Positions 47,643 to 60,465 of a stretch of DNA of 64,000 nt are shown here, one piece after another. A model generated the notes under the pieces. That model saw only the letters and a list, made by a program, of their open reading frames with translations, had not been told where the DNA came from and ran no database searches. The stretch comes from Euryarchaeota archaeon UBA19 (GTDB lineage: Archaea; Thermoplasmatota; Poseidoniia; Poseidoniales; Thalassarchaeaceae), in assembly GCA_002502175.1 (NCBI GenBank), contig DAPQ01000060.1:7784-71783 (forward strand). Direction: 5' to 3'. Position 1 is the stretch's first letter, and every line of letters begins with the position of its first letter. The translations under genes and the position numbers were made by a program.

Positions 47643-48524
47643 ATGAAGATGGAAAGCGGGGAAATTCGCGGGATTCTTCAACCACTCTGTGACGATATTC
47701 AAGAACAGATATCCTACAATCGGGAAGAAAGGGACCAATGGAATTCGAAAGTCCGTAAATTACTCGACGAACGCAACGAGTTAAATCGGCAAGTTAAGGA
47801 ATTAATCACAGAGGTGCAGAATCAAAAATCTCTACGAGATGATGCAAACCAAACCGTTAGAGAATTAAAAGAAATAAGGGCTGAAAGGACTGAGGTACTA
47901 AGAGTAATTAGGACCGATTTTAGGGAGAAAATAGCCGAAAATGGCTCTCAAGAAGAAAGACAGGAGAAACACGATAAAACTCGCTCACCAGGAAGAATTA
48001 GAACAGAAATAGACCGTTTGGAAAAGCAATACAACGAAGGTCGGTTCCTTGGTAAAAAGGAAAAAGAGTTCGTCGCTAAAATGAAAAAGTTACATCAAGA
48101 ACTTAGAGAAGCTAAGGAAAAGAAATCCGATGGTGGAATAAGAGAATTAAAGATTCAACTTAGAGATGCTGAAAAGAAACAAGAAGACGCCCACAAGAAG
48201 GTGAAGCGGGCAGTAATAGGCGCTCAAGAAGCCCATGACTTGATGGCTGAATTATCGGAAGAGGTCGATAGATTACGAGAGAAGGCAAATTCAGCTCAGT
48301 CAGGAGTTACTCGGGCTAAAAGAGAAGCAGATTCTCTCCATGGAAGATACATTGTATCGTTGAGGTGTATACATTCCATGCAAGATTTACTCAAGGCTCT
48401 GGAAACTAGAGAAGGCGGTGTTACAGAGGACGACGAGCAAGTCGAAGTCGCTGATCTAATGACACGACTAATGTCTGGAGACACATTATCTACTGACGAA
48501 ATCATGGCGCTTCAGAGGAATTGA
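47643..48524 (+). CDS. charged coiled-coil protein (paralog family)
   Basis: Central block 'GRFLGKKEKEFVAKMKKLHQELREAKEKK' and heptad-rich flanks. 293 aa. Confidence 0.4.
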   Translation: MKMESGEIRGILQPLCDDIQEQISYNREERDQWNSKVRKLLDERNELNRQVKELITEVQNQKSLRDDANQTVRELKEIRAERTEVLRVIRTDFREKIAENGSQEERQEKHDKTRSPGRIRTEIDRLEKQYNEGRFLGKKEKEFVAKMKKLHQELREAKEKKSDGGIRELKIQLRDAEKKQEDAHKKVKRAVIGAQEAHDLMAELSEEVDRLREKANSAQSGVTRAKREADSLHGRYIVSLRCIHSMQDLLKALETREGGVTEDDEQVEVADLMTRLMSGDTLSTDEIMALQRN

Positions 48525-49455
48525 TTTCGTAAGTTCGACCATTCCTAGAATGAAGAAGCTCAATTCCACCCTCATGGTCAAGTAGCCAGCCCGGAATAGC
48601 AGAAGGAATTTCTTCTAGTATCGCCCCATCTGAATCAAATGACCACCTTTCTAACATAGTGCTTCTGACCGAACTTCCTTCAATGGCTTCTTCTTGTTTT
48701 TGTCTTCGGGACTCTAAAATCCCTACTAACATAACTCTCAAATCGGTATCTGTCAACCATTTATTTTCTTTGGCAATAATTAACCGTAGGTTTGGAGGGG
48801 TATTCAGAACTTGATCTGAATCATGGGCCTCCAAACGATTAGCCCATGGGTCTTCTAATACACTCCAATTACCCTCTTCCCTCTCTCCATCAGGACTGAC
48901 TAATGCACCATTTATGTTCCATATACGAGATTGTAGAAGTATTGGTTTAGCATCAACATATTCCATTCCTCTTTGTATACACCATTCATCAAGGTCAATT
49001 ATTGGAGGCAAAATGACTAACTTATTCGGAAGTTTTTCTTCAATAATTTCTTCAGTGATTTCTTCATTAGGGGTTATTTGAGGAATTTTGGCTTCTAAAT
49101 CTCCGCGTAAAACTGCTTCTCCAATCCAACGGCTTAAGACATCAGGATTCCAAAGTTCAATTTTCAATTTTGAAGACAATATTTCCTTAGCCTGGTCTTC
49201 AAATTCTCTCTCACTCAAAATCCAATGAGGGCCACTAGGAGCATCTACAAGCCATCTTTCAGCTTCCGCGACACTTACTGGAATAATCGCTTTAGGCACA
49301 TGCCAAACATGCACTGAAGAACCTGTATCCTCTTCTAATTCAGGAATTTTCTCAGCTACTCCAAGGCACCGGAAACCAACAGTTTCGACTAGATTACTAG
49401 CCTCGGATAATCTAACTCCGCGAAGATTGAGTAAATCCCCCACGGTATTATCCAT
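48502..49455 (-). CDS. hypothetical acidic protein in the position normally occupied by nusA downstream of rpl30e
   Basis: 317 aa with no KH (GxxG) motifs. Follows rpl30e on the same strand after an 85-nt gap. Confidence 0.35.
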   Translation of the reverse strand: MDNTVGDLLNLRGVRLSEASNLVETVGFRCLGVAEKIPELEEDTGSSVHVWHVPKAIIPVSVAEAERWLVDAPSGPHWILSEREFEDQAKEILSSKLKIELWNPDVLSRWIGEAVLRGDLEAKIPQITPNEEITEEIIEEKLPNKLVILPPIIDLDEWCIQRGMEYVDAKPILLQSRIWNINGALVSPDGEREEGNWSVLEDPWANRLEAHDSDQVLNTPPNLRLIIAKENKWLTDTDLRVMLVGILESRRQKQEEAIEGSSVRSTMLERWSFDSDGAILEEIPSAIPGWLLDHEGGIELLHSRNGRTYEINSSEAP

Positions 49456-49540: not shown

Positions 49541-49858
49541 TCAGAGGTTTGTACTCAGAGTTAGAAGGTCTGACTGACCTGGGTCTATAACACATAATGC
49601 ACTAACTGGGAATGGTTTGGCACAAGCCGCACCCAACTGCCTGTTTACCATCGTAACTCTATGAACTGGGATATCAGGATGGCTAGTTGTCAAACTGGAT
49701 ATGTAATCCTCCGGACAGTTTGCCGCCACCAATACCAATCTGGCATCTCCTTTATTGCATGCACTTGTCGTTTGGCGTTGGCCAAATAGTACATTTCCTG
49801 TGCTAATTCCTTGTTTTAGTTGTCTTGCTAGATCCATTAGAATTCCTCCTTCAAGCAT
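49541..49858 (-). CDS. rpl30e: 50S ribosomal protein L30e
   Basis: '[13 protein letters not shown]'-type motif ('[16 protein letters not shown]'). Position downstream of rpoA'' is canonical. Confidence 0.8.
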
Positions 49859-51431
49859 CTGCCTCTTCAGGTATGTAAAACAAATCTACACTACCTGTTC
49901 CAAGGGCTACTGGTTGACCAACGATAATATTCTCAGTTACACCTCTTAGGTGGTCTCTTTCACCAATTACACCAGCACGAAGTAAGTGGTTAACAGAGAC
50001 TTCGAACGCTGATCTTGCTAGAATACTGTGTTTCGTACCGCTAACTCCGTGTCGTCCAATCGCACGAACTTCACCTTCGCTAGTCATCACGTCAGCCACA
50101 GTGATTAGGTGCCTAGTGTCGACCTCCAAACCTGCCCCTTCAAGAGTATCTTTCATCTCATTGACGATTGCTTGCCTTGCCGCTTCAACTCCTAGATATT
50201 GGTAAATTTCATTGATATTGTTTGTGTAAGTTCTGCCTCTGTCTACACCTGCAAATTCACTGACCTTTGCTAGATTTGAGCCAATTGTGGCGATGTAATA
50301 CTCGCCGGTATCCTTGTTTGGACCCTGAACATTTGCTCGAATAATATCTGGCAATCCCTTTAATCTAAGTTTCTTGACTTTGTCCTCAAGTTGCAGTAAT
50401 GCGGTGTATGTTGGAGGATCATTTGCCAATGTTGCTAGATCATCTTCTTTGGTAACTCCAGGAATTACCTTGAGGACCTTAGGCTTGTCTTCATTATCAG
50501 CCTGAATGTATAGTCGAAGAGCTCTTTGCAGTTTATCTCTAACCTCAGCACCAGTCATTTTCTTCAAACGTAGGTTTGAGGCGTTTAAATCTAAATTAAG
50601 GTGCCTTTGAGCGACATCCACATCGATGGAAGCGATGTCTCTAGTCGTAGTTGTTTCAATTGAGGCCGCAATCGCTTGAACCTTCTTTTCATTGGTTCGC
50701 AGAGGCTTACCTTTGGAATCATTCTCATCGAGATAAACAAGCATTGTCGGTGTTTTTGGCACCTTCCTTGCATCAACAATTTCGATTACTCTCGGAAGAC
50801 CTTGGGTTACGTTAACCGTAGCTACACCAGCATAGTGGAAAGTACGCATTGTCATCTGAGTCCCAGGCTCTCCAATTGATTGAGCAGTGGTTATCCCTAC
50901 AGCCTCGTGTGGATCGACTCTTGACATTTCCATGCCGGATGCGGCACAAGTTACGACCTTGCGTGCTTCCGCTGCGGTAAGTTTCTTCTTTCCTCTAGAT
51001 AGCAAGCCATTGACTAAATCATTGATTGTCTTCGGTGTAATTCGAATGTTTTCCTTTGCGGCTGCGTCTGAAAGACTGGTGAACATTGGGTTCTCAATAT
51101 CTAAATCACGGTGGATTTGACGCATCTTGTCTTCCGAGTCATATTCTTGCAGAGGAAGAACGCTCTTCTTTCTGCGTCTTGTAGCAACACGGCGACGGAT
51201 CAAAGTCTTCTCCGCTGCCTTTTCCTTTTGAGCCGCTTTGGTAGAGCCTTGAATGACTTCAGATATATTCTGTGCCATTCCAGAATCGGTGGCGCAAATT
51301 TGTGCGATTTCTCCAGCGGTAAGCACCTTCACGTCATCCCACTTGCGGTCATCTGCAAGGCGATGTGCATATTCCTCTGCGATTCCAAGATCCATCAACT
51401 TCTTTTTGGTTGCACTCTTGACTACCATCAC
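49851..51431 (-). CDS. rpoA2: DNA-directed RNA polymerase subunit A'' with ~110-aa N-terminal (HhH)2-like extension plus Arg-rich linker
   Basis: A'' core blocks '[25 protein letters not shown]', '[10 protein letters not shown]'. The N-terminus '[26 protein letters not shown]...' is paralogous to the RpoH N-terminus. Linker '[14 protein letters not shown]'. Confidence 0.85.
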
Positions 51432-54400
51432 TCATCACCTCCTAGAGCATCATCGAGAACCTTGGTGATATCAAATGGCATACCCTTTCGACTTCTAGCT
51501 GGGTCAATTCCATCTTCACCATACTCGAATTGGATAATCCTATCGGCAGTATTTCTAACTGAGCCGTTTCCATCTTCAGACACCTTGAGGTCGTCCATTG
51601 CGTTGATTAGACGGCGTTGCATATATCCTGACTTAGAGGTACGAACCGCGGTATCGACTAGGGACTCTCGTCCAGATACTGATAGCATGAAGAACTCAGT
51701 TGGCTCAAGCCCTTGCTTAAACGAAGAAGAGACGAATCCCTTTTCTTCCGCTCCTTTTACTCCACGAGGGAAGTGGGAAAGTACTCTGTCTTGGTAACCT
51801 CGCTCTAGACGCTTTCCACGGACCTTTGGTTGTCCTATCGAACCTGCCATCATCGCTAGGTTATCCATTGAACCACGAGCTCCCGATGTTGCCATGATTA
51901 CAGCAGAGTTATCCTCTCCAAGGTATGACTTAGCAACATTACCAGATTCTGCTTTAGCGGAATCTAGAATTTGCAGTATGTTCTCTTCAAGCGTCTCGAT
52001 TGGAGTTCTTCCCGGTCGAGTCTCATATCCACGTCCATTTTTGCCAAACTTTGCCAATTCTGCGTCTACTTCGTCACTAGCTCGGACGTTGATTTCAGAG
52101 ATTTCCTTAATCGCCGCGAGGGGTAAGTCTTCGTCATCGATTCCAGTAGTGAATCCAAGAGATGTACAAATTGCGATTGTCATCTTTGTCATTCTGTTTA
52201 GGAATTCAGCGCCACGGTTAGTACCGTGAGTCTGAACTACCGCATCAAGTAATCTACCATCTTCTGCACCAATTCCTCGCTTGTCGATAGTACCACTGAC
52301 AATACCAGTAGAAGTAACATTGACTTCGTCTCCACTTCTACTCGTGTAGTTTAATTTGAATCCTGCAGGGACAATTAGGCTGAGGAGATCAGCACCTCTG
52401 TAACCTACCATACCATCCTTAGTTGTGACTTCTTCTGGCATCTCTCCATCCCAGCCTACTGAACCCAATACTTCCATAGCCAGTTCCTTAGGTAGAACTC
52501 TGTCACCATGAGTTAGAAGATAAGCTCCTGAAATATGGTCATGTATTCCTCCAATAACCGAACCACCGTATCTTGGAGTAATGATGTGTTCCTGAACTCT
52601 CATCAAAATCTTCGCTTCGGCCCTTGCCTCTTCAGATTGTATGACGTGTAGATTCATTTCATCTCCGTCGAAATCAGCATTGTAGGGTGTACAATCTGCT
52701 AGATTGAATCGGAATGTCTTGCCTTGCATAACACGAATTTCGTGAACCAGCATAGACATTCTGTGAAGTGAAGGCTGCCGATTGAAGATTGCTACGTCCC
52801 CGTCGATAAGATGTCTTTCAACAATTACACCAGGTCGCGGGTTACCGTCCCTATCGTAAGTTGAAAGTCTGTCTTCAACTTCAGTTCGGTATACATTACC
52901 GTGCTCGTCTTCCACCGCAGGACTGCCACAATGAGGGCAGTACACTTCAAGGTGCTCTGGGAAATATTCGTCAGGGTTGTTCTGCTCCCATACCCATCGA
53001 TTATGGATAATTGCTCGAGGGTCGTCCTCAGCTAGTTGACGACCATTTTCGTCTTCACCTCGTAGGTTGGAAATTGTTGTGTCAAGATCTACTGACCAAA
53101 CATCCTCGAGGTCACCCAGTTCATTCCTTCGCATCTGCTTCATTAGTTCAAGCCCAGGAAGGAAGTTTGGTGCAGGGAGTACTGTGTTGAGGTCTGGCCG
53201 ATATCCATCATAGGGCTCTTCGTCGCTTCCGCAATGACAATCTGGATTCAAACAACGGAATCCAGCCCAGATGAATTTTGTCCTATCAGTGATTCTTACT
53301 CTGAAACTATCTCCTCTGATAATGTAGTTAACACCAGGATGGACATCCGGCCCACGCATAATCATCCTTCGTAATTGTTCTCGGTTCCTGCTAGTTGCAC
53401 GGATTGGAACTGTCAATTCCTTGGCTGTTTGAACTGGAACACCAACCTCGTTAATTCCAAGATTTGGATCTGGGCTGATTACAGTACGAGCACAGAAGTT
53501 AACTCGCTTTCCGGAAAGATTGCTTCGGAATCTTCCTTCCTTACCCTTGAGGCGTTGTGAAAGAGTCTTCAGAGGCCTTCCAGAGCGGTGCCTTGCTGGT
53601 GGAATACCGCTGGTCTGATTATCGAAATATGTTGTAACGTGGTATTGCAATAATTCCCAGAGATCTTCAACAATTAATTGCGGTGCTCCAGCGTCACGGT
53701 TTTCTCGTAGTCGTTGGTTGATTCTGAGAACGTCGACCAATTTGTGAGTGAGGTCATCTTCGGAGCGATCTCCGCTATCCAAAGTAATTGATGGACGTAC
53801 TGTTATTGGCGGCACTGGAAGAACCTTCATTATTGACCACTCAGGTCTACTAGAATTGCTATCCATTCCAAGGAATATCAAATGTTGGTCTGGAATCTTT
53901 TCTAGCCATTCTCGGATATCTCTTGCATTCAACTTGTGTTCCCCTTTGTCGGCTTTCTTCTCCTTGAAAGTAGAAGGCTTGTCTAGGAGAATCTTACCTT
54001 GTTCCGCGCCACAGTGCATGCAAATAGCACGCTTGGCGCTGGAACATTCCTTCTCGATTTCCTTGATGATTTTCTTGAATTCAGTGGAACCTACACCATG
54101 CTTTCGCATTACATCATGAACACGGTCACGGTAGTAATCTTGTTCAGACTTTTCTGGATCTAGAGGGTGAGTGTCTGCTGCACTGTGCAGAAGAATTTGG
54201 CTACATTCATTGCAAGTGCACTTCAGAGCCGTTTTGATTAGAGCGGTGAATCCGATGTGCATAACAGGTAGTTCAAGCGCGATATGCCCGAAATGACTCG
54301 GGCACTCGTCATGCTTATTTCCACACGTCTCACAGCGAATTCCTGGGTCAATGACTCCCATTTTTGGATCCATCAATCCTTGCTTGAACGCGTGTCCATC

Positions 54401-54526
54401 ATCCTTGTAAGTGTCTGCTGTCTTTACTTCAACTGCCGACATCTTTCGAATCTCATTTGGATCCATTAGGCTGAACTTGATCGAATCTATCCTCTTTGGG
54501 ATTTTTGCTACTCCACGGGCACTCAT
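51428..54526 (-). CDS. rpoA1: DNA-directed RNA polymerase subunit A' (with lineage-specific zinc-ribbon insertion)
   Basis: Zn sites '[17 protein letters not shown]', 'CTCNEC...CMHCG'. '[12 protein letters not shown]' active site. '[11 protein letters not shown]'. 1032 aa versus ~880 typical. Confidence 0.9.
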
Positions 54527-57500
54527 CTTCGGTCCTCCAATTCAAGGCGCATAGCCACTCCAAGACTCTTCATTTCGTCCAGAAGTAGCTTGAAAGCGTA
54601 GGAGGTTTGTACCGAATGAACATCTGCTCGATCGCCACAGACCGGGCAAACCGGTGTCCTCCTCTTCCAATCATAATACGCGATATGTCCACAGCCACTG
54701 TTGTTACAAACCATCAGTGGCCAACCATCCGATTCATCGAGCAGTCTATCTTTGATTACCATCGAAGCACCGTGGGCAATTAGACAATCTCTCTCCATTT
54801 CTCCGAACCTGAGACCACCTTGTCGGGCTCGTCCCTCTGTTGGCTGTCGAGTCAAGATTTGTACTCGACCACGGCTTCGGGCGTGCAGTTTGCTGCTAAC
54901 TAAGTGGTGTAGGCGCTGATAGAAAATTACTCCAGTGAAAATTTCAGCTTGGAAGGCTTCTCCGGTTTCACCGCTAATCATCGGTTCTCTTCCTGTGTGC
55001 GCGAAACCATTTCTAAGTAGTCCAGAGCGAAGTGATTCTTCCTTTTCTCCGCTAAACGCAGTACCGTCAATCTGTCGACCTTCCATGGAACCAACCTTTC
55101 CACCAATCATCTCTAAAACGTGTGCTACTGTCATTCTAGATGGAATAGCGTGAGGATTGATAATTAGGTCGGGAACGATACCGTCAACAGTGAATGGCAT
55201 ATCCTTCTCATCTACGAGTCTGCCAATTACACCCTTCTGACCGTGTCGACTTGCGAATTTATCACCTAATTCAGGTACCTTTTCTGTCCTCAAAGTGATG
55301 CGGCACAGAAGTCCGGAATCGAGTGATTCTGTAACGAATACATTGTCTACCCATCCAGATTCACCATTACGAACCATCATTGATGATTCTCGGCGTTCTT
55401 GGGCTTGTAGGAAATGTCCATGTGATTCTTCAAGGAATCTTGGAGGGCTTGTTTTTCCTACTAAGACTCCGGTATCTGCACCAACACTTGACAAATGAGT
55501 CTCTGGAGTTGGAAGACCATCCCTTTCTAAGTGGACGTAGCTCTCCCAAGACTTGAGGCCCTTTACCTCGTCAAGTCCAGTTCCTGGAACTTCAATTTGC
55601 TCTTTTTGTCCACCAGGGAATTGTTTGTTCTCGGCATTGTATGTGCGAATGAATGATGAGCGGCCCAGCGATCTCTCGACTGCTGCTCTATTCATAACCA
55701 CGGCGTCTTGCATGTTGTATCCATGATGGCTCAATATAGCCACAACGAAATTTTGTCCGCCCGGTCTTTGGGCGAAATTAGTAGTCTTCATCGAGCGTGT
55801 TCCGACAATTGATTGCTGTGGATAATGCATTACGTGCATACGGGTATCTGGCCTTAGGCGGTAGTTTGCACTTGGAAGACCAAGGCTTTGCTTCACCATT
55901 GCTGTACCACCGGTAACTCTTGGAGTAGAGTTGTGCTCAGGATAAGGCACTAGTGATGCACATACACCTAGAATTAGTTGAGGGTCTATCTCGACGTGAG
56001 TGTAGGCGAGAACTGTGTTTTGCCTCTTCTGCTTTCGTAGAATAGCCTCAAGATCCTCTTGATAGTAGTTTAGTGGTACACTGAAATTCTCTATCTCCGA
56101 ATCCCCATTAGGCATCTTTACTTCTACGCGTAGTTTTGCTTTCTTAATTTGAGAAGCACCTAGGTTTACCCATTCCACGGAAGCTGGATTTATTGGACGA
56201 CCATGCTTTGGAGAAACCATAGGTAAATCGAACGGCCGAGGTGCAATAAGGAGGTCTTCCTCTTCTTCTGCATCCACCCATTCAACTACACCGTTTGATA
56301 CTAAATCAGCAAACGTCCATTCTCCTGATTTTATCAAGTCGAGATGGTCTTTGGAAAGTACCAAATCACCGTCTTCGAGGACCAAAAGAGGCCTCAGTAT
56401 TCGACCTCTGTCAGTGTTGATGAAAATATCTCTATTTGCCCCGTCATATCGTATACTTACCTCGGGACGGATTCTTCCCTGGCGCCTTCGACGCTTGAAT
56501 TGATTAACCAACTTAGTGGCGTTTTTGTGTAATCCGAAAATGTCTCCATTAACGTGTACACGGAATCCTTCAGCCCATCCGGCAGGTGAAGAATCAACTC
56601 CTGCTTCGCTTAGGAGTTGCTTTACCTCGTTCTCATGAACTTCTTCTGAGACGTCAATCATCTGAGATGCGTTCTTGACCAAGCCACAATTCTGCCCTTC
56701 GGGCGTCTCGTTTGGACAGAGCCTACCCCATTGAGTGGGGTGCAGATCTCGAGCTTCGAAGTGAGGTTGGCTGCGAACCAAGGGGCTCGTTACTCTACGC
56801 ATGTGTGACAGAGCCGCAAGATAGGTAGTCCTGTCCAGAAGTTGACTGACACCGCTACGTCCGCCAACCCAATTTCCGGTTGCCAAAGCGTGCATTATTT
56901 TCTGAGTTAGAACATCAGGTCGCAAGCAGGCGTTGATTCTTAATTCGCGCTTTCTGTTGTGATGGCGCTCTAATTGATACTTTAGATCACGTGCAAGTTG
57001 TTGAAGGCTTACTCGGAATAGATCTTCGACTAAGTCCCCTGCTAATCTAACTCTCTTGTTAGCGTAATGGTCCTTGTCATTAGGGTCTTGGTCTGTAATT
57101 GCCATTTCAAGGACTTGGCGTACAATTCGGCCGAGGAATATTGCTTTCTTCTCTCGGTGTTCGGGGCCTGAACCAAGGTGAGGTAGTAGTTCCTTGTCCA
57201 ACAAATTCTGAATTCTCGCTTCTCGATATTCCTTCTGCTGACCAGCGGCGAATTTCTTCTCTAGCCATTGAAGGGCTTCCTCGGAAGTCTCTACGTTATA
57301 TTCTTCGTTATCTTTGACATCGTTTAGATTAGCAACAGTATACTTCATCGCTTCAGCTGGACCTGCAATTGCAGTGAAAATTTCCTTATCATTCTCCATG
57401 CCGAGAGAACGCATTAGCAGAACCACTGGAATTGGAGTTGTTCCTGCACTTGGAATCTTAACCATAAGCATACCATCACGGCGCTTTTCTATGTTCAGTG

Positions 57501-58209
57501 GCTTTCTAACTCCATCTTTTTGTGAGAAAATCTTTGCAACTTCTGTTTCATGAGCATATTTCTTATTCTTCTCCACAGTGACTCGGTTTGGCGCTAGATC
57601 TTCCATCGAGATTAGTACTCTTTCTGTACCGTTGATAATGAAATAGCCACCAGGGTCTAGAGGGTCTTCTCCTGCTCTACGTAGTAACTCAGTTAATCTC
57701 TCAGCATCCTCTGTGGAAGTGTGAGGTGATAACTTTCTATCGTCATCAGCACATAGGTGAGAGATATGGTTAGCGTGTAGATTACACTGAGCAGAACGAA
57801 CCATAATTGGGAGGTTACCAATGTGCACCCTCTCTTCTATATCCGGAGTTGGTTTGTCATCTCGGATAATTTGGAAATCTAGGTGCACTGGTGAGAAATA
57901 AGTTAGTTTCCTTAGCCTGCACTCTAATGGGGTCGCAGGATGTTCTGCGCCATTTGCTTCCCGGATTGTAGGGCGGCCAAGATGAATATTCTTCATTCTG
58001 ATGACGATCTCTTTGTCTAGAACGTCCAGTTTGATTATTCCACCGTCATCGTCTTCTACTGGCTCATCAGTTCCAATGCGAATATTTCGAACGATTTTTT
58101 CCATTCGGCTTAATTTACCGTCGGTAGATGGAATACAATCATTGTAGGATGCTAATTGGTGGTTAACCAAGCTTCTTTGCTGAAAATAACTCTCTACGAT
58201 TTCCTTCAT
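54523..58209 (-). CDS. rpoB: DNA-directed RNA polymerase subunit B (unsplit)
   Basis: 1228 aa single ORF. 'GEMERDCLIAHGA', C-terminal Zn ribbon 'CNNSGCGHIAY...CPVCG'. 4-nt overlap with rpoA1. Confidence 0.9.
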   Translation of the reverse strand: MKEIVESYFQQRSLVNHQLASYNDCIPSTDGKLSRMEKIVRNIRIGTDEPVEDDDGGIIKLDVLDKEIVIRMKNIHLGRPTIREANGAEHPATPLECRLRKLTYFSPVHLDFQIIRDDKPTPDIEERVHIGNLPIMVRSAQCNLHANHISHLCADDDRKLSPHTSTEDAERLTELLRRAGEDPLDPGGYFIINGTERVLISMEDLAPNRVTVEKNKKYAHETEVAKIFSQKDGVRKPLNIEKRRDGMLMVKIPSAGTTPIPVVLLMRSLGMENDKEIFTAIAGPAEAMKYTVANLNDVKDNEEYNVETSEEALQWLEKKFAAGQQKEYREARIQNLLDKELLPHLGSGPEHREKKAIFLGRIVRQVLEMAITDQDPNDKDHYANKRVRLAGDLVEDLFRVSLQQLARDLKYQLERHHNRKRELRINACLRPDVLTQKIMHALATGNWVGGRSGVSQLLDRTTYLAALSHMRRVTSPLVRSQPHFEARDLHPTQWGRLCPNETPEGQNCGLVKNASQMIDVSEEVHENEVKQLLSEAGVDSSPAGWAEGFRVHVNGDIFGLHKNATKLVNQFKRRRRQGRIRPEVSIRYDGANRDIFINTDRGRILRPLLVLEDGDLVLSKDHLDLIKSGEWTFADLVSNGVVEWVDAEEEEDLLIAPRPFDLPMVSPKHGRPINPASVEWVNLGASQIKKAKLRVEVKMPNGDSEIENFSVPLNYYQEDLEAILRKQKRQNTVLAYTHVEIDPQLILGVCASLVPYPEHNSTPRVTGGTAMVKQSLGLPSANYRLRPDTRMHVMHYPQQSIVGTRSMKTTNFAQRPGGQNFVVAILSHHGYNMQDAVVMNRAAVERSLGRSSFIRTYNAENKQFPGGQKEQIEVPGTGLDEVKGLKSWESYVHLERDGLPTPETHLSSVGADTGVLVGKTSPPRFLEESHGHFLQAQERRESSMMVRNGESGWVDNVFVTESLDSGLLCRITLRTEKVPELGDKFASRHGQKGVIGRLVDEKDMPFTVDGIVPDLIINPHAIPSRMTVAHVLEMIGGKVGSMEGRQIDGTAFSGEKEESLRSGLLRNGFAHTGREPMISGETGEAFQAEIFTGVIFYQRLHHLVSSKLHARSRGRVQILTRQPTEGRARQGGLRFGEMERDCLIAHGASMVIKDRLLDESDGWPLMVCNNSGCGHIAYYDWKRRTPVCPVCGDRADVHSVQTSYAFKLLLDEMKSLGVAMRLELEDRR

Positions 58210-58221
58210 CTTCTCAACTCC

Positions 58222-58809
58222 TCAAGCACTCTCCACGATTAGTCTGAATGCGGTACTTGAACCGGCAACTCGGCTATATCGAACTACTCGCACTACTCTG
58301 TTTGCAAGCCATCCAGCAGGTAAATCATCTATCTCCGACTCTACCTTTTCTTTGATAGCTTGAACGGCAGGGTCGGTAATTAGAAGCTTAGGCAATAATT
58401 CCTTTGCAATCCTAATTCCGCCTTCATTGTCAGGAACTTCTAAACCCCAATGAGACAATACTGCGGACTCTTCTTCTTGTGAGACCAATTCATGGTGAGG
58501 AACTAATATGTGATTTAGGACATTAAAGCGATCGTCACCCTGAGGGATGTCGTCTAGTTCCAATGCCTTTCTTGAAATTGTAATTCTGCCGGAACGACTG
58601 CGTCGACGAGAGGTGTTGTGCTCTCTGATAATGGACATGATATTCTCGAGTGTTGCATCGCTCATCGCTACTCCAGTCTTTTCGGAAACTTCCTCAACCG
58701 TCATTCGCTTGATTGCATCCATGTTTGCGTCGTCAGCGAGTTTGTGGGCATGTTCTGCATCTATGCCCAACTCGATTAGACGCTTTTTTGTAGAACTCTT
58801 AACTGCCAT
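58222..58809 (-). CDS. rpoH: DNA-directed RNA polymerase subunit H with ~100-aa N-terminal (HhH)2-like extension
   Basis: C-terminal '[15 protein letters not shown]...[14 protein letters not shown]...[22 protein letters not shown]' is RpoH/Rpb5-C. The N-terminal '[26 protein letters not shown]...' is paralogous to the RpoA'' N-terminus. Confidence 0.8.
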
Positions 58810-58858
58810 TTACGCCGCCCCAAAACCCAGAAAACCGTGTGCCTGAGGCTTGGTCAGG

Positions 58859-58932
58859 CGGGCCTGGAGGGATTCGAACCCCCGGCCACCGGGTTAAAAG
58901 CCCGGCGCTCTACCTGACTAAGCTACAGGCCC
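58859..58932 (-). tRNA. tRNA-Lys (anticodon UUU), CCA not encoded
   Basis: Full cloverleaf by hand: acceptor GGGCCTG/CAGGCCC. D-arm GCTT-AGTCAGGTA-GAGC. Anticodon arm CCGGG-CTTTTAA-CCCGG. T-arm GGGGG-TTCGAAT-CCCTC. Discriminator G. Confidence 0.8.
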
Positions 58933-59094: not shown

Positions 59095-60465
59095 ATGGGC
59101 ACTAGTGAAATATCCAGAGAGGTCGAATACTCCTCTTCAGATCATTCCAAGGTTCATGATTTCAAGATAAACGATAAGAATTCTATCAAGTTGATTGTGC
59201 CGCCTACTGTTTACCCACCCAGAAGAGACACTAAACTGTTGCTTAAGGGGCTGGAACGCATTAATTTGCAACCAGGAAATTTGGTCGAGATTGGATGTGG
59301 TTCAGGGGCAATTTCAATTGCCAAGGCTCTGGAAGGCTGGAATGTAACCGCCTTTGATGTAAATCCACTGGCCGTAGTTGCAACAAAAGGAAACTCGGAA
59401 GTTGCAAAAGTGAACGATAGAGTCACAGTAGAAGAGGGAGGCGTTGGGGAAGAACATTGGAAGTTACCCGATAATGCGGACTTAGTCGTATGGAATTTAC
59501 CATACCTAACCCCGGATTTAGAAAATATACTTGGGCCAATGGAAGAAGCGGCTTTAACCGATGAGAGAATTACAGGTTGGTCTGAACAATTACTCGAGCT
59601 AGCAAATGAAGAAAGTCAAAATGGAACGATATTTGTGCTTCTAATAAACTCTGATTCGAATCCAAAAAATTCACCATTAACATGGATAAGGAAAGGCTGG
59701 TCAAAAAGGTCTTTGGCAGTCGAAAGAGTTGGAGACGATACCCTAGAAGTTATAGCATTCTGGAGACCTGGGTTTGGTTCAGAACCCATCTACCTAGAAA
59801 TGACAAATTCGACCATGGATGAGGCACGAAATTTACCTAATTTTGGGTGGCAGAGAATTCGTTCTGGAGAACAGATTAGCGGGAGAGGAAGGAAAGGGGC
59901 AATTTGGCATTCAAATCAAGGTGACATGATAGCCTCTTGGAGCGTTAAATTAGAGGAATTAAATCAATTGAATCCGGGGCTATTACAAGTATCAATAGGA
60001 GCATCAATTTGTGAAGCATTAGGAGTCCAAATGAAATGGCCAAATGACTTGATTTGGCAGGGTAGAAAATGCGGCGGAATTTTACTTGAATCTAGCACAT
60101 ATGATGGAACAATTAGGATCGGTGTTGGATTAAACAAGAATGGGGGAGAAATAGAAGGTTTTTCCTATTCTGGATGGACTGAATATTTCGGGGAGATTGA
60201 CTCTAACGAGATGTTTCAAATTATTGATGCCGCAATAGGATCAATTTTGGATTCTACACCGCCAATAGATTCTATTGAAAATACATTATGGCAACAGAAA
60301 TCTTGGGCCCAATTATGTGACATTCTATCCACAGGCGTGGTAGCCAAATTTGAGGGAAGGGAAGTAAATATTGTTGGCCTTTCTAATGCTGGCAGTTTGA
60401 GAGCATATTCAGATAGTTCGGAATACGAAATATCTGATATTGATGACTTTTCCATTACTTTCTAG
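59095..60465 (+). CDS. fusion protein: N-terminal HemK/PrmC-like class I methyltransferase + C-terminal biotin--protein ligase (BirA catalytic domain)
   Basis: MTase: 'VPPTVYPPRRDTKLL', motif I 'VEIGCGSGAISIA', motif IV 'VVWNLPYL' (NPPY variant). BPL: 'GRGRKGAIWHSNQGDMIASWSV' and 'KWPNDLIWQGRKCGGILLE'. GGTGA Shine-Dalgarno-like sequence 6 nt upstream. Confidence 0.65.
   Translation: MGTSEISREVEYSSSDHSKVHDFKINDKNSIKLIVPPTVYPPRRDTKLLLKGLERINLQPGNLVEIGCGSGAISIAKALEGWNVTAFDVNPLAVVATKGNSEVAKVNDRVTVEEGGVGEEHWKLPDNADLVVWNLPYLTPDLENILGPMEEAALTDERITGWSEQLLELANEESQNGTIFVLLINSDSNPKNSPLTWIRKGWSKRSLAVERVGDDTLEVIAFWRPGFGSEPIYLEMTNSTMDEARNLPNFGWQRIRSGEQISGRGRKGAIWHSNQGDMIASWSVKLEELNQLNPGLLQVSIGASICEALGVQMKWPNDLIWQGRKCGGILLESSTYDGTIRIGVGLNKNGGEIEGFSYSGWTEYFGEIDSNEMFQIIDAAIGSILDSTPPIDSIENTLWQQKSWAQLCDILSTGVVAKFEGREVNIVGLSNAGSLRAYSDSSEYEISDIDDFSITF

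Follow-up and report, generated by a model that had tools for sequence, protein, structure and literature searches.

A paralogous N-terminal module, tethered on two subunits of the Poseidoniales RNA polymerase and also present on proteins of virus- or plasmid-like contigs

To our knowledge, archaeal RNA polymerases are usually described without a counterpart of the eukaryotic Rpb5 jaw or of the bacterial alpha-CTD, and the only accessory element at the downstream DNA that we know of in archaea is Rpo13 of the Sulfolobales. Archaeal Rpo5 does not have the eukaryotic Rpb5 jaw; reportedly, “no archaeal species possesses this domain”, a statement that still holds as far as homology is concerned. 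Subunit H has been described as “strongly associated with” A'', with A', A'' and H forming the lower jaw beside the downstream DNA (PMC2847245). In Sulfolobales, Rpo13 fills the groove that H forms with the clamp head and binds dsDNA through its Lys-rich tail; analogous elements in other archaea were predicted by the same authors (PMC2675907, PMC3479171).

We analyzed a 64 kb stretch of DNA (hereafter the window) from a Marine Group IIb archaeon (Thalassarchaeaceae, Poseidoniales). Poseidoniales are uncultured and are among the most abundant archaea of the surface ocean. In their RNA polymerase, a lineage-specific unit occurs twice, at the N-termini of A'' (Rpo1C) and of RpoH (Rpo5); each copy consists of a ~62-aa domain with five predicted helices and, after it, a strongly basic tether of ~30–35 aa that is predicted to be disordered. 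Rpo5 of Poseidoniales does have an N-terminal domain, of which a second copy is present on A''. Among the accessory domains of multisubunit RNA polymerases, this lineage-specific module is one for which we found no published description; the archaeal RNA polymerase small-subunit survey (2026, PMC13257274) mentions neither Poseidoniales nor the extension.

The closest functional parallel would be the pair of flexibly tethered alpha-CTDs of bacterial RNA polymerase, with Rpo13 and the eukaryotic Rpb5 jaw as further functional counterparts that likewise have no homology to the module. Disorder is predicted for the A'' tether, and one copy each on A'' and H would give two per enzyme. In contrast to the alpha-CTD, the Poseidoniales domains are N-terminal, belong to two different subunits, would lie on the lower-jaw and not on the upstream side, and combine a strongly basic linker with an acidic domain. 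The two have no sequence homology, and no match was obtained between the module and the RpoA C-terminal domain in either Pfam or the PDB sequences. Rpo13 resembles the module in being a small, lineage-specific helical element with a basic disordered tail, but it is a subunit of its own, with a core of the helix-turn-helix type, whereas the module is fused in cis to A'' and H, has five predicted helices and occurs twice; no Rpo13 chain was matched by the module profile among all PDB sequences. The RpoH module occupies in the sequence a position equivalent to that of the N-terminal jaw of eukaryotic Rpb5, although the jaw is unrelated to it in both fold and sequence. XPF-ERCC1, FANCM-FAAP24, Hef, NusA AR1/AR2 and SAM-SAM were the best structural matches, and no membership of the module in these families was found at the sequence level.

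The RNA polymerase operon and the start of rpoA''

The window contains rpoH, rpoB, rpoA' and rpoA'' in the usual order of archaeal operons (Table 1), as expected for Rpo1C. A'' matched PF04998 (RNA polymerase Rpb1 domain 5) over residues 75–469 with 165.8 bits for a cut-off of 28.5 (E=1.7e-48) and was homologous from end to end to a solved archaeal Rpo1C chain (query 130–520 against chain residues 21–390, E=1e-80). Its amino-acid identity was 88–94% to Thalassarchaeaceae/Candidatus Thalassarchaeum and ~60% to Poseidoniaceae (MGIIa).

Table 1. Positions of the features discussed, in the window unless a contig is named (residue numbers are those of the protein concerned).
Feature	Position	Strand	Description
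rpoA'' (Rpo1C) CDS	49851..51428	-	525 aa from conserved ATG 51428; PF04998 and solved Rpo1C chains
rpoA'' listed ORF	51431..49851	-	526 codons; GTG 51431, one codon earlier
A'' N-terminal extension as observed	51428..51100	-	translated, on A''/Rpo1C
A'' N-terminal module	51243..51428	-	residues 1-62; five helices, SAM-like/(HhH)2 fold (predicted)
A'' basic tether	51153..51242	-	residues 63-92; predicted disordered; ~30 aa
Arg-rich linker	51203..51162	-	residues 76-89, inside the A'' basic tether
A'' acidic/helical connector	51060..51152	-	residues 93-123; into the first helices aligning with solved Rpo1C
rpoA' stop TGA	51430..51428	-	its A is common to the A'' ATG
Shine-Dalgarno-like GGAGGTG	51436..51442	-	within the last rpoA' codons, 6 nt upstream of the A'' ATG
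rpoA' (Rpo1N)	51428..54526	-	1032 aa (typically ~880 aa); upstream gene, translationally coupled to rpoA''
RpoA' insertion	52847..53344	-	~160 aa, residues ~395-560
rpoB	58209..54523	-	unsplit, 1228 aa
rpoH	58809..58222	-	195 aa
RpoH/Rpo5 N-terminal module	58618..58809	-	residues 1-64 of 195; then its own basic run
L30e	49858..49541	-	after rpoA''
317-aa ORF	48502..49455	-	after L30e
tRNA-Lys(UUU)	58857..58932	-	48 nt upstream of the rpoH start, same strand
456-aa ORF	59095..60465	+	divergent from the tRNA-Lys/rpoH region
1292-aa protein (P0285)			module at start, without Pfam domain
316-337-aa family (P0300, P0316, P0318, P0322)			module at start, without Pfam domain
284-295-aa family (P0333, P0340, P0355, P0359)			module at start, without Pfam domain
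210-225-aa family with GFRGLGSLF (P0303, P0304, P0308, P0320, P0363, P0369)			module at start, without Pfam domain
Single representatives (P0351, P0347, P0364, P0296, P0293, P0309, P0358)			module-bearing orphans
851-aa AAA_15/AAA_21 ATPase (P0330)			module at residues 93-149
Module genes on carrier contigs, examples	L092:3681-4694, L093:5446-6348, L097:10001-10591, L095:10001-10651, L083:1884-5762		

RpoB, A', A'' and H are all longer than usual, which shows that several lineage-specific additions are present in the Poseidoniales polymerase. RpoB exceeds typical archaeal B subunits by ~100 aa. The insertion of RpoA' interrupts Pfam Rpb1 domain 2 and contains the Cys motifs CLNPDCHCG ... CPHCG, which suggest an additional zinc-binding element. 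The 317-aa ORF occupies the usual place of nusA and has no Pfam match; its position is kept in 50 of 80 Poseidoniales loci, it evolves fast (63% identity where A'' shows 94%) and its N-terminus, DLLNLRGVRLSEASNLVETVGF, resembles by eye a helix-hairpin-helix motif. On the other side of the operon, translated traces of tRNA precede rpoH in many related loci, and the 456-aa ORF encodes an unusual fusion of an N-terminal PrmA/MTS-type methyltransferase with a biotin/lipoate protein ligase domain.

An earlier note, made from the DNA of the window alone, had described A'' as oversized through ~120 additional N-terminal residues. The protein is indeed 525 aa long (526 if counted from the GTG), against 391–397 aa for the solved archaeal Rpo1C chains, and the extension is real. 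The solved chains align only from query residue ~124–130, corresponding to their residues 17–21, so that its length is ~105–110 aa and not ~120. Apart from this extension, ~20 more extra residues are located in the jaw region of A''.

The four-nucleotide ATGA overlap with the rpoA' stop that had been put forward for the start does not exist: the sequence reads GTGATG, and the real overlap is TGATG, in which the two genes have a single base in common. The GTG was usually replaced in related genomes (by CTG or TTG) whereas the ATG and TGATG were kept, which identifies the ATG as the real start of A''; the stop/start overlap indicates translational coupling from rpoA' to rpoA''. The Shine-Dalgarno-like GGAGGTG was kept in nearly all sampled related loci, even when the flanking codons differed, with a few single-base variants (GGGGGTG, GGGGGGG, GGGGGTA). 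Homologues of 523 aa are annotated in public records from this same start, under the simple name “subunit A''”.

All 80 Poseidoniales loci fetched matched the A'' extension from query residue 1–4 on; 79 showed the N-terminal motif, and the remaining one is interrupted by the end of its contig. The same 12 residues were shared at the start by 112 out of 120 homologues from metagenomes. Across the first 54 codons of A'', the mean minor-allele fractions at the three codon positions were 0.14, 0.10 and 0.44, and the median dN/dS was ~0.10 at a dS of ~1.7. The earlier suggestion that the module was selected for function and is no annotation artefact agrees well with this dN/dS, with the presence of the extension in the 80 loci and with GGAGGTG and TGATG ahead of the ATG. 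We give practically no credence to the opposite explanation, in which A'' is translated only from an internal Met onward, so that no protein is made from the region before it. Nothing in its favor was found; internal Met codons are present in the window protein (M102, M115, M166, and M168), but none of these positions is conserved across homologues, and the upstream 54 codons vary and evolve as described above, behind a conserved coupling signal and a start site common to the public annotations. An internal start codon was rejected on these grounds, both the variable Met positions and the codon statistics. By these signatures, the extension truly belongs to A'': it is translated and under selection.

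Two copies of one module and their predicted fold

The relationship of the A'' N-terminus to that of RpoH, which the earlier note had pointed out, was recovered by alignment, with 41% identity between A'' residues 1–60 and RpoH residues 1–62 (E=3e-12). When both modules were searched with tblastn against the whole window, only these two copies were retrieved, the next match having E=0.18, and both were present in 53 of the 53 loci in which the rpoH N-terminus could be read. The A''-type and H-type consensus sequences were distinct in MGIIa as well as in MGIIb, indicating that the duplication predates the split between these two groups. Gene conversion between the two copies was rejected: identity at third codon positions was 12/35, and codons for the same amino acid were identical in only 44% of cases across loci. 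The copies thus differ at synonymous sites, and it is at the level of the protein that they are kept similar. Both are translated, ancient and under strong purifying selection. In many related genomes (L009, L017, L018, L021, L023, L028, L032, L045, and L048) the RpoH module starts with a non-ATG codon, translated for instance as LAVKSSTKK, the amino acids being kept from residue 2 on.

In AlphaFold2 models, the helices of the module span residues 6–13, 18–24, 30–34, 38–45, and 49–62 (the last one to 62/69), and the invariant residues of the A'' module are K4, S5, T7, K8, K9, L11, A21, H22, L24, A25, D27, D31, and K34. The pLDDT was 76 for the model of A'' residues 1–180 and 83 for residues 1–64; in the tether it was 58 over residues 61–80 and 58–67 over 61–90, with no secondary structure at ~70–97. 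The fold rests on predicted models built from shallow alignments (27–56 sequences). An Arg-rich linker had been reported after the module and is found there, inside the tether. Across genomes, the modules are acidic, with a mean net charge of -1.7 for A'' and -2.0 for H (range -4 to 0), whereas the mean charge of the tethers is +8.3 for A'' and +3.7 for H. The tether sequence varies while its basic charge is always kept, and in H the basic run is followed by acidic residues. The N-terminal helix of the module is itself strongly basic (K4 and K8–K10).

The label “(HhH)2-like” is correct for the predicted fold class, which SAM domains fit equally well, whereas membership of the DNA-binding HhH families was not established. 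The predicted fold has the five helices of an (HhH)2 domain, that is, two helix-hairpin-helix units and a connector helix, and equally those of the SAM fold. Its best fold matches included the DNA-binding (HhH)2 domains of Topo V, XPF, FANCM/FAAP24, Hef, UvrC, and LigA, and SAM domains and the protein-binding NusA-AR domains matched equally well. The hairpin glycine signature (h-G-h-G/GhG) was not conserved in both hairpins among the 79 A'' sequences: hairpin 1 was LGI, LGV, or MGV in 61 of them but MLVP, LQID, or MQVP in the other 18, where the Gly is lost, and hairpin 2 (TDSG, TDSE, or LSSE) had no conserved Gly. None of the HHH Pfam models matched the module significantly (best were HHH_6 with E=0.033 and HHH_5 with E=0.16, each in one of 33 members), and of the Pfam models SAM_1 and SAM_2, SAM_1 was hit by two of the 33 members, with an E of 0.023 at best, which reaches no cut-off. 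The module profile retrieved no significant chain from the PDB sequences, and no HhH chain at E<10. Pfam contains no family for this domain.

One could nevertheless interpret the module as a classical (HhH)2 DNA binder, whose two hairpins clamp the phosphate backbone of the downstream duplex while the Arg-rich linker merely adds affinity; the two copies would then form a sliding guard rail. The presence of DNA-binding domains among the top fold matches, the L-G-I of hairpin 1 in most sequences, the invariant lysines of helix 1, and the location of both host subunits along the downstream DNA all speak for this possibility. We regard it as doubtful, given the net acidic charge of the module in every genome, the loss of the hairpin-1 Gly in part of the A'' sequences and its lack of conservation in hairpin 2, the absence of significant HHH Pfam matches, the equally good fit of SAM and NusA-AR domains, and the 25–30 surface residues that are near-identical between the host copies and those of mobile elements (see below), more than binding to a backbone needs. 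The net charge speaks weakly against an attachment to the DNA backbone that is independent of sequence. The module could contact DNA directly, given its strongly basic N-terminal helix, and direct binding is a serious rival to the docking function proposed below.

Module-bearing proteins of putative mobile elements

An exhaustive search with the module profile covered 1.84 billion representative proteins (E<=0.001). It matched just 208 clusters, which include A'' and RpoH fragments as well as at least eight unrelated non-polymerase families (Table 1). The module is indeed carried by two subunits of the same enzyme, as the earlier note had stressed, but it is not specific to RNA polymerase, since it also heads these orphan families. 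It was located there at the extreme N-terminus or near it. Most of the non-polymerase carriers had a module of the A'' type, which agreed with the A'' consensus at 24–31 of 36 residues, and four had the H type. The basic tether was missing from most of them, the orphan family resembling P0358 having a basic run.

All families whose contig was examined were encoded in ORFan-rich, virus- or plasmid-like DNA. The carrier contigs (L081–L098) ranged from 1 to 170 kb, with a GC content of 0.39–0.47 (0.43 in the window) and one module gene each, and consisted of tightly packed ORFans, mostly on the same strand. L092 and L093 encode their own TFB, adjacent to a Holliday-junction resolvase (Hjc), as well as an XPD-like helicase; TFB and resolvase are also encoded by L097 and L098, and L095 has a class II ribonucleotide reductase, several DNA methylases, an ERCC4 nuclease and a FEN-type nuclease. 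In related elements, one and the same slot, located ~3 kb upstream of TFB-Hjc, is occupied by two different module proteins, of the 337-aa and of the 196-aa family. One cluster member originated from the 0.1–0.22 µm size fraction of Tara. These contigs look like viruses or plasmids, a nature that we infer from their sequence. The module was not found in GenBank records of phages and archaeal viruses, and none of its 92 pattern matches in IMG/VR was confirmed. The large ORFs neighboring the module genes had no match in GenBank phages, PHROGs yielded no convincing match on the element contigs (with one borderline hit, E=0.00095, to a family of unknown function), and nothing significant was obtained by a BFVD fold search.

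At the six element loci compared, the module DNA shared only 71–79% identity with the closest among 75 host rpoA'' 5' ends; the similarity between element and host modules therefore does not come from recent transfer, and a recent host-to-element transfer was rejected for them. Apparent stand-alone module genes (P0020, P0035, P0042, P0047, P0048, P0073, P0078, and P0115) were rejected as frameshift-broken A'' calls. Their tails (in P0020, P0042, P0048, P0115 and others) diverge from A'' after frameshifts, which identifies these as broken calls and not as separate genes; many public calls of 80–160 aa on long contigs are likewise frameshift-truncated A'' N-termini that could be mistaken for stand-alone module genes.

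The distribution of the module might also suggest a tag for assembly, stability or localization, steering its carrier to a common site or chaperone, such as the nucleoid or an RNA polymerase assembly platform. The module would then have no part in the transcription cycle, and the proteins of the mobile elements would share the same address. Such a tag would be consistent with the location of the module, including an identical 11-residue start, at the very N-terminus of almost every carrier, and with carriers that are otherwise unrelated. It seems quite improbable to us, however, because the module is a folded domain of 62 aa and no short signal, because the two host carriers adjoin each other within one enzyme and are alone in consistently having the basic tether, and because no partner was identified.

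A possible docking function and its significance

We think that the module is probably a shared docking module. Our complete explanation, to which we attribute a probability of about 0.5, is that of paired tethered units, with the basic tethers on nucleic acid and the acidic modules docking on a conserved partner. A'' and H are direct neighbors in the lower jaw, so that both units would leave the enzyme from the same face, on the lower-jaw side of the downstream-DNA channel (for the location of the N-termini we rely on published work on other archaea). The tethers would contact duplex DNA, and possibly RNA, non-specifically, whereas the net-acidic folded domains, with their near-invariant surface, would dock on the partner. 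This proposed role of the domain follows from its acidity, its lack of a conserved HhH glycine signature and its near-invariant surface, and docking is further favored over plain backbone binding by the porting of the module, without the tether, onto element proteins.

Several partners can be envisaged. The first candidate would be the other module, in a pair comparable to the (HhH)2 pairs XPF-ERCC1 or FANCM-FAAP24. Many (HhH)2 and SAM-like domains act in pairs of paralogues, as homo- or heterodimers, which would fit with two paralogous copies on adjacent subunits, the A''-H pairing being hypothetical. The second candidate would be the positively charged groove that lies between the clamp head and H and is filled by Rpo13 in Sulfolobus, and the third a transcription factor. 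The partner of the A'' module might also be unrelated to that of the H module.

Mobile elements may use the module as a portable docking or address unit. More specifically, elements would fix it onto their own effectors, which would dock at the site of the host domain on the RNA polymerase or on its partner; we propose this tentatively and consider it rather unlikely. The element proteins could use the module for general DNA affinity alone. If effector docking is true, the module proteins together with the element-encoded TFB would amount to a takeover of the host RNA polymerase by domain mimicry, and the two tethered domains of the host would be a regulatory docking platform, more than a DNA clamp.

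With a pair of tethered accessory domains on two lower-jaw subunits, Poseidoniales would have their own, independent answer to the architectural problem that is solved elsewhere by the Rpb5 jaw, the alpha-CTD or Rpo13. The conserved 11-residue start of the module offers a sequence marker to find such elements in this uncultured lineage, and the presence of the module on virus-like, TFB-encoding contigs provides a testable handle on how these elements might address the transcription machinery of their host.
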